Source: a virus (taxonomy: Duplodnaviria > Heunggongvirae > Uroviricota > Caudoviricetes). Taken from it: a DNA stretch of 23,727 bases. Below are positions 1,973 through 2,178 of this stretch, piece by piece. Within the stretch, counting starts at the first letter, position 1; the number at the start of each line of letters is the position of its first letter. The position numbers and the translations under genes are program-made. The notes under the pieces were generated by a model that saw nothing but the letters and a program-made list of their open reading frames with translations, ran no database searches and was not told where the DNA came from. The DNA lies in the IMG/VR virus record IMGVR_UViG_2671180283_000006. One strand, given 5' to 3'.

Positions 1973-2178
1973 GTTAGAGTCTTTCAGTCTGCGATGATGG
2001 GAAATCCCGGAGTGACTGAAAGACGTTTAAGTTATGAATGATCGCTTTTTTTTGCAAAATTGCTGTGCAGAAATACTAACCTTCGGGCAGGCGATCATTC
2101 ATAAGCACTCTGCTTTTATTCCGATTAACTGTGGGTGGTTTGTTGGATAGAGTGCTTTCCTTACTGTATATATTGTTT

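Follow-up and report, generated by a model that had tools for sequence, protein, structure and literature searches.

The window studied here is the whole 23,727-nucleotide stretch of the virus record IMGVR_UViG_2671180283_000006 (IMG/VR; Caudoviricetes). Between the last gene of its tRNA array, a tRNA-Gly (1898-1972 by ARAGORN), and the holin gene that opens its lysis cassette lies a 292-bp gap (1973-2264), and most of this gap is taken up by an element of four modules (1973-2205): three stem-loops, called SL1, SL2 and SL3, and an intrinsic terminator. The element opens one base past the CCA end of the tRNA-Gly. Substitution patterns in diverged copies indicate that its + strand RNA fold is under purifying selection, and the element is a candidate RNA family outside Rfam 15 and the searchable literature. 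Tentatively, we favour the idea that it is a 3' trailer of tRNAs or other cargo that is released as a stable small RNA. The setting matters because Shiga toxin genes and several virulence-linked small RNAs of lambdoid phages occupy this slot of the late operon. The parts of the element are as follows.

1973..1978, + strand: A/U-rich linker GUUAGA from the tRNA 3' end to SL1, unpaired in the consensus fold
1979..2024, + strand: SL1, the first inverted repeat and an optional module, whose 12-bp lower stem leads through an asymmetric internal loop to a short apical stem-loop
2032..2104, + strand: SL2, the second inverted repeat and the constant core, folding as a three-way junction
2103..2157, + strand: SL3, the third hairpin, with an outer stem 2105-2112/2148-2155 that can be extended in the window to 2103/2157
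2158..2179, + strand: U-rich single-stranded spacer from SL3 to the terminator, placed by the fold and differing between variant groups in the alignment
2180..2205, + strand: intrinsic terminator found by a terminator scan, GCCCGC-UUUU-GCGGGC plus UUUUCUUUUC

The starting point was an initial annotation, made from the letters alone, that had reported two perfect inverted repeats in the gap and judged them unlikely to be fortuitous. Both repeats are exact. The first pairs gtctttcagtc (1979-1989) with gactgaaagac (2014-2024) over 11 nt, enclosing a 24-nt loop, and the second pairs ttatgaatgatcgc (2032-2045) with gcgatcattcataa (2091-2104) over 14 nt, enclosing a 45-nt loop. They are also beyond chance. 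When 1973-2264 was shuffled 3000 times with dinucleotides preserved and loops of up to 60 nt allowed, a perfect inverted repeat of at least 11 nt turned up in 11 shuffles and one of at least 14 nt in none. The proposed extent (1979-2104) does hold both repeats, but the element reaches further, to 2205. Missing from the earlier description were a third inverted repeat (2103-2111/2149-2157, 9 nt, perfect) and the intrinsic terminator (stem 2180-2195, T-run to 2205).

Folding of 1973-2206 as + strand RNA, a check that had been proposed at the outset, yields three hairpins and the terminator, with an energy of -83 kcal/mol (z = -6.0 relative to shuffles). Within SL2, a lower stem (2032-2047/2089-2104) carries an upper hairpin (2049-2056/2066-2073) with a 9-nt loop, AAAUUGCUG (2057-2065), and a small C(UUCG)G hairpin at 2080-2087. 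SL3 contains an A/U-rich 7-nt bulge and an inner stem, the 3' strand of which is the near-invariant G/U-rich segment GGGUGGUUUGUUGGAU (2133-2148).

Relatives of the element are numerous. BLAST returned four E. coli phages with nearly the same sequence, and phage HK639 at 77% identity. Pattern scans were then run on IMG/VR with three conserved blocks and on a set of one genome per species with one block. The scans with a 17-mer gave 111 true copies (59 distinct), and the two other blocks brought further variants. In the one-genome-per-species set there were eight true loci, all in Enterobacteriaceae, and the rest were chance occurrences of the 17-mer, mostly from unrelated phyla. The hosts of these loci are E. 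coli, Shigella flexneri, Enterobacter hormaechei, Citrobacter sedlakii, Phytobacter ursingii and Yokenella regensburgei. Of the 5426 complete E. coli genomes, about 530 have the interval, always on the chromosome and in up to five copies per genome. In other words, roughly one complete E. coli genome in ten carries the element, some of them more than once, and it extends to at least five other enterobacterial genera. None of the listed matches in complete E. coli genomes has an annotated feature over the interval, and the genome and phage records examined give the element no RNA annotation. The sole annotation that these records show over the interval is a minus-strand 'hypothetical protein' in two phage records. 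Salmonella prophage Fels-1 has SL2 alone, in degenerate form. As for E. coli 042 (locus L002, NZ_CP042934.2 1634631-1640922, at 3293-5455), its prophage is defective, with a holin gene that is cut off after 129 bp and fused to a tail-tip pseudogene. It still has Q, the tRNAs and the element, all 100% identical to the window.

The evidence for a conserved fold comes from alignments of these copies, which are related sequences gathered for the most part with a 17-mer in SL2. The SL2 stems, SL1 and SL3 lie outside that pattern. For SL2 (alignment A3, 35 distinct sequences), 98.3% of cells are paired and five pairs, in 33 cells, have changes on both sides. For SL1 (A4, 26 distinct sequences) the figures are 96.4%, five pairs and 26 cells, and for SL3 (A5, 29 distinct sequences) they are 97.0%, four pairs and 35 cells. 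Controls in which the pairing was slid reach 29-55% paired for SL2, 38-53% for SL1 and 35-47% for SL3. For each of the three hairpins none of 500 shuffles reaches the covariation score, a count and not a probability, since many of the sequences are closely related and the shuffle controls overstate significance. The compensatory changes include U-A to A-U, G-C to U-A and U-A to C-G in SL2, and U-A to C-G and C-G to U-A in both SL1 and SL3. HK639 keeps both repeat stems through compensatory changes, and L233, a locus found via a different motif, adds a further event: the SL2 upper stem UUUUUGCA/UGCAGAAA has become UUUUUAU/AUAAAAA. The suggestion that the repeats might form a structured RNA is thus borne out in diverged prophages by the covariation check that had been proposed for it.

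The same alignments reveal the strand. In the three helices, 231 cells are G·U when read on the + strand, against 17 in a minus-strand reading. In the opposite sense each of the 231 would be an A·C mismatch, so the fold belongs to the + strand RNA, in the sense of the late operon. Between the + and the minus strand, pairing drops from 96-98% to 81-89% and the score of the SL2 covariance model R1 from 96.9 to 21.7 bits, which speaks against a minus-strand RNA. The terminators, too, function on the + strand only.

Could the interval encode a small protein instead? The open reading frames (ORFs) in the gap are all short (31-45 aa), and none attains 60 aa, as had been said of this gap before. Moreover, HK639-type copies contain stops and close relatives differ by indels of 1-2 nt. 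The 43-aa minus-strand 'hypothetical protein' (ON470583) has a frame that is not conserved across copies. The G·U asymmetry argues against a site in duplex DNA and, with the frame-breaking indels, against coding.

Selection seems to act on more than the pairing. The GGGUGGUUUGUUGGAU strand of SL3 is nearly invariant, and its partner strand varies and pairs with it via wobbles. The SL2 apical loop AAAUUGCUG is little changed even in copies found via other motifs, and its GCUG is always kept. In SL1 the internal loop comprises a closing pair C1992-G2012, a GAU bulge (1993-1995), GA (1996-1997) opposite GA (2010-2011) as tandem G·A/A·G positions, and then U1998·G2009. G1b, A2b and A1n are invariant and G2n is present in 25 of the 26 distinct sequences; the bulge positions vary. 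As a match to a sequence pattern, this loop fits the k-turn consensus of a Watson-Crick stem, a 3-nt bulge, tandem sheared G·A/A·G pairs and a non-canonical stem; its own counterparts are the C-G-closed stem, the GAU bulge, the G·A/A·G positions and a second stem that opens with U·G. We know of no L7Ae-type k-turn-binding protein in E. coli.

Kinship with the small RNA GcvB was considered because the HK639-type SL1 (locus L001, 2506-2515) and GcvB (L226, gcvB of strain E2348/69) have the 10-mer GGTCTGCGAT in common. The structural context differs and the Rfam GcvB model finds no match, and the shared 10-mer is probably due to chance. Two lesser resemblances are that the SL2 loop region UUUGCAAAAUUG is similar to UUUGCAAUUG of GcvB and that the G/U-rich strand of SL3 is GcvB-like in composition.

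The modules are not equally constant. SL2 is the constant one, SL1 is optional and SL3 is usually there. Locus L113 has SL1 and SL2 followed directly by a terminator, and L242 and L257 have SL3 alone. Instead of SL2, L285 has a different long hairpin (CATTCGCATGAGCACTG ... CAGTGCTCAGCCGAATG) after SL1, in a stretch that runs from about 25 nt before to 190 nt after the GTCTGCGATGATGGG motif (6904-6918 on the minus strand of the locus), which points to a second type of related module for this position. In one IMG/VR contig (IMGVR_UViG_2851668853_000001, loci L092 and L247), SL2 and SL3 appear to be split by an insertion sequence; the upstream flank of L247 resembles the end of a transposase gene.

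The position of the element relative to tRNA genes is more rigid. In more than 90 of the 111 copies, the SL2 motif lies at one of two distances past a tRNA 3' end, 76-81 nt with SL1 and 20-27 nt without it. With these fixed distances, the tRNA end is always only a few bases away from the start of some stem: a strong stem 1-7 nt past the CCA, formed by SL1 in the window and by SL2 where SL1 is absent. The connection with tRNA 3' ends that had been guessed at for the repeats therefore holds for most copies. The upstream tRNA is mostly Gly-TCC, and Met-CAT, Val-TAC and Glu-TTC also occur. In HK639 what precedes the element is a tRNA-Gly cut down to its 3' half, and further upstream there is an intact tRNA-Asn (L001, 2440-2493 and 2305-3138).

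Other copies border on other cargo. In the L074 group, the anticodon arm of a tRNA-Thr is broken by the start of a cargo insertion that is about 500 bp long and includes a small putative membrane ORF (MLLKTLKILALVICFVVSCAMYF...). The insertion replaces the rest of the array (half of the tRNA-Thr and the tRNA-Gly) together with SL1, and abuts SL2 directly. Counted along the element's strand, the cargo site is about 560 nt before SL2, likewise in L009, L034, L231 and others. This is cargo exchange at the module boundaries of the element. A secreted-protein gene is found upstream of the element in L089 and Fels-1, and a gene for a CPBP-type protease in L125. Copies that follow protein-coding cargo retain SL2 and SL3. 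The element is thus the junction between a variable slot (tRNAs, truncated tRNAs, morons, an insertion sequence) and variable lysis cassettes. Because the Q genes and cargo upstream and the lysis cassettes downstream are each of several unrelated types, no neighbouring protein is constant around it.

What does recur is a terminator. In nearly every variant an intrinsic terminator comes right after the element, adjoining SL3 directly or, in L113, SL2, and at least five unrelated sequences fill this role. The one in HK639 differs from that of the window, and the HK639 leader from Q to the lysis genes (950 bp) has four annotated terminators.

How might such an element be expressed? The start of the window is the late regulatory region of a lambdoid prophage, and its features around the element are these.

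327-701: RusA resolvase gene
698-1519: Q-type antiterminator gene, 273 aa (ORF list)
1525..1552, + strand: putative pR'-like late promoter, TTGATT at 1525, 16 nt, TAAATT at 1547 (read from the sequence)
1600..1626, + strand: tR'-like intrinsic terminator, a 7-bp stem plus T-run (terminator scan)
1663..1972, + strand: tRNA array of Ile2/Met-CAT, an odd tRNA-like 'Lys-TTT', Thr-TGT and Gly-TCC (ARAGORN; three of the four by the Rfam tRNA model; PGAP in E. coli 042)
2265..2480, + strand: 71-aa holin, the first gene of the lysis cassette and the downstream boundary of the slot (ORF list; holin annotation in a related phage and in E. coli 042)

The explanation we would put first, though with reserve, treats 1973-2205 as a gene for a structured non-coding RNA that forms the 3' trailer of the tRNA array or of other slot cargo. 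It would be transcribed from the late promoter pR'. The tR'-like terminator would end a short pR' transcript unless Q acts, and in a lysogen the small fraction of polymerases that reads through tR', or a cargo promoter, would supply the element RNA. After induction, the RNA would be part of the late transcript that Q antiterminates. Its 5' end would arise when the 3' end of the last tRNA is matured by cleavage, and the A/U-rich linker (1973..1978) is a plausible site for this endonucleolytic cut. On a polymerase unmodified by Q, the terminator (2180-2205) would form or protect the 3' end. The predicted product is a discrete RNA of roughly 190-235 nt made of a k-turn hairpin, a three-way junction and a G/U-rich hairpin. 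It would persist, with the AAAUUGCUG loop, the GGGUGGUUUGUUGGAU strand and the k-turn binding a host or phage partner, either RNA or protein. The fold, its strand, its conservation, its position at the 3' edge of tRNAs or cargo and the terminator that follows are observed; transcription, processing, stability and action in trans are what the model would add. This reading is preferred because it alone fits together the tRNA and cargo contexts, a terminator that is replaced yet retained, and the conservation of the loops.

Several observations weigh against it, as does the relatedness of the aligned sequences noted above. The 17-mer used for collection lies in SL2, so the invariance of the SL2 loop is partly built in. 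About ten copies have no tRNA upstream. The window holds no complement to the conserved segments of the element. The promoter scan found no separate promoter for the tRNAs or the element, so synthesis in a lysogen would hinge on leakage through tR'. In the lytic cycle the terminator should have no effect on Q-modified polymerase, which means that a discrete 3' end is not guaranteed. Finally, the U-tract of the terminator is short for a classical Hfq-dependent small RNA. There is one weak promoter candidate just before the first tRNA (TTGCGG-17-TATTAT, 1629-1657), which was read by eye and failed the scan.

What if the element acts only in cis, as punctuation or a stability element of the late transcript? 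This is possible, if doubtful. Excision of the tRNAs would leave the lysis and structural mRNA with a 5'-monophosphate, and a hairpin at that end might shield it from 5'-end-dependent RNase E; with cargo upstream, the same hairpins might serve as a 3' barrier for cargo mRNAs. Hairpins at the 5' terminus do stabilise E. coli mRNAs, for instance in the ompA 5' UTR (untranslated region). A strong stem just past the CCA end, with or without SL1, is what this idea predicts, and it also suits the great stability of the folds and the fact that the element is always upstream of the lysis cassette, whatever the cassette type. However, plain stabilising hairpins have no need of conserved loops, a k-turn or a three-way junction. 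Furthermore, the first lysis gene comes only after the terminator and another 60-100 nt, and SL2 and SL3 are retained after protein-coding cargo.

A related and rather less likely idea is a boundary module. The element would insulate the lethal lysis genes from transcription of the slot in a lysogen, and might in addition be a 'linker' for homologous exchange of cargo. Its place exactly between a highly variable slot and variable lysis cassettes is as expected, and so are a terminator that is replaced in sequence but kept directly after the element in nearly every variant, and the four terminators of the HK639 leader. Nevertheless, a terminator by itself would suffice as an insulator. A recombination linker would conserve sequence, whereas the compensatory changes and the G·U asymmetry are signs of selection on an RNA fold. 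Nor does the G/U-rich strand have special complementarity to the terminators that follow. In a simple test of this one candidate segment, its duplex energies with 13 distinct terminator arms after the element did not stand out from those with 122 other terminators of the same loci (p = 0.51). The attenuator that had been among the first suggestions finds no support in this test.

It is unlikely that the element belongs to tRNA biology or phage defence as a compact enterobacterial counterpart of the 'ornate' RNAs linked to phage tRNAs, namely T4 species 1 and 2, GOLLD and ROOL. Such an RNA would not be a base-pairing small RNA. It might be a decoy or inhibitor of host nucleases that cleave tRNAs, or a guide for the maturation of phage tRNA precursors. 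Tight linkage to tRNA arrays regardless of tRNA identity speaks for it, as does the aberrant tRNA-like gene with a UUU anticodon in the array of the window. The k-turn-like motif and the three-way junction suggest a defined three-dimensional fold. On the other hand, the element resembles no Rfam family (GOLLD and ROOL included) and is far smaller than these RNAs, some copies have no tRNA upstream, and no defence or nuclease gene is consistently nearby.

A function at the level of DNA is very unlikely. The arms are perfect palindromes, as in a protein-binding site, and they sit at a point of cargo exchange with truncated tRNAs near, as might the scars of recombination or integration. Yet the arms change and the pairing stays, and tolerance of G·U on one strand is meaningless for duplex DNA. 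Arms set 24 and 45 nt apart with conserved loops between them are also untypical of operators. Of the recombination scar that had been raised earlier, one part stands: the element does mark the downstream edge of the cargo slot, with cargo and truncated tRNAs abutting it. As the main explanation it fails, because the stems covary.

A processive antiterminator of the HK022 put type, acting in cis on its own polymerase, is least credible of all: terminators come directly after the hairpins and HK639, a phage that uses a put-like RNA, has a homologue, but that putL-like RNA (34187-34312) is next to pL in the early left operon and has nothing in common with the element, which is downstream of tR' in an operon that Q already antiterminates and where constitutive read-through into the lysis genes would harm the lysogen. 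The two RNAs of HK639, each a stem-loop RNA upstream of terminators in a lambdoid phage, differ in sequence, in size and in fold, and a search of the HK639 early region with model R1 is negative at E up to 10.

Comparison with described RNAs did not place the element in a known family. The Rfam 15 scan that had been recommended, run over 1400-2600 at E up to 10, reports tRNAs and weak chance matches alone, with nothing in 1973-2160. This excludes AgvB, AsxR, Esr41, STnc100, GcvB, RtT, GOLLD and ROOL, as far as the models go. In addition, the conserved 16-mers are absent from the searchable literature. In kind, the element is nevertheless akin to two groups, the tRNA-operon-trailer RNAs and the prophage small RNAs of the Q-lysis slot.

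The first group includes 3'ETS-leuZ, RtT and the species 1 and 2 RNAs of T4. Both 3'ETS-leuZ (glyW-cysT-leuZ operon of E. coli) and RtT (tyrT operon) are, like the element, directly 3' of the last tRNA and co-directional with it, and they too end at the intrinsic terminator of the unit, which is 2180-2205 in the window. The element has no sequence relationship to either of them, is phage-borne and in some copies follows protein-coding cargo. It is also far more structured than 3'ETS-leuZ, with three covarying hairpins in about 190-235 nt. The T4 species 1 and 2 RNAs (rnaC, rnaD), GOLLD and ROOL are, similarly, structured RNAs that neighbour a cluster of phage tRNAs and presumably derive from the precursor of those tRNAs. 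The element differs from GOLLD and ROOL in its much smaller size, the lack of an Rfam match and its context, the head of the late operon in a temperate lambdoid phage.

For the second group, small RNAs in the prophage slot from Q to the lysis genes have precedents (PMC4104026; PMC8550237; bioRxiv 10.64898/2026.05.13.724894). AgvB, AsxR, PasA/PasC/PasD, Esr41 and STnc100 share with the element the slot from the Q gene to the holin gene, a non-coding nature and a terminator at the end. The element is larger than these and linked to tRNAs. In Tree et al. (PMC4104026), the small RNAs at the 'moron' site between Q and holin are described as convergent with pR', whereas the element is co-directional with it. 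The Pas small RNAs of enteropathogenic E. coli adjoin holin/lysozyme operons (PMC8550237; bioRxiv 10.64898/2026.05.13.724894). PasA, PasB, PasC and PasD1 were placed on the E2348/69 chromosome from RIL-seq tables and their loci compared. Neither the conserved motifs nor model R1 match any of the four, and PasA is on the opposite strand in E2348/69, whereas the element is on the pR' strand.

If the element does give a stable RNA, it would be a new family among the prophage RNAs that are able to rewire host regulation. To our knowledge, it would also be the first phage-borne 3'-trailer RNA of a tRNA array in these phages. If its role is confined to stabilising or punctuating the late transcript, the element would illustrate how tRNA genes can come before essential late genes in a phage. 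Either way, the family is small, clearly covarying and present in easily handled lysogens (HK639, E. coli 042, ECOR13 PhiR47_1). This makes it a convenient system for an old question, namely why phages keep structured RNAs by their tRNA genes.

Some further observations concern the surroundings of the element. The hexamers at 1525..1552 resemble those of lambda pR', and the consensus promoter scan left this site unflagged. With tR' about 70 nt on, a short constitutive RNA of roughly 67 nt would be expected from 1525-1626, and it would occupy the same position as lambda 6S RNA, StxS of Stx phages and Salmonella IsrK. The Rfam matches there are weak and below threshold (isrK, 16.3 bits; Trp_leader, 25.6 bits, E = 0.012).

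The first tRNA of the array (1663-1738) is called Met (CAT) by ARAGORN, but in E. coli 042 PGAP makes it a tRNA-Ile. Probably this is a tRNA of the Ile2 type, lysidine-modified and reading AUA, which we would liken to the ileZ genes of Stx phages. The second gene (1740-1816) is a tRNA-Lys (UUU) according to ARAGORN, goes unreported by the Rfam tRNA model and is unannotated by PGAP in E. coli 042; its equivalent in the related locus L012 is a tRNA-Phe (AAA). This member of the array is an aberrant tRNA-like gene and might be a pseudo-tRNA or a decoy. Neither ARAGORN nor the Rfam tRNA model calls a tRNA in 1973-2264. Beyond the gap, the lysis cassette runs from the 71-aa holin (2265-2480) through a YdfR-like ORF to a lysozyme. 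Just past it, on the minus strand, a 230-aa ORF (4417-5109) apparently marks another cargo position of the prophage.

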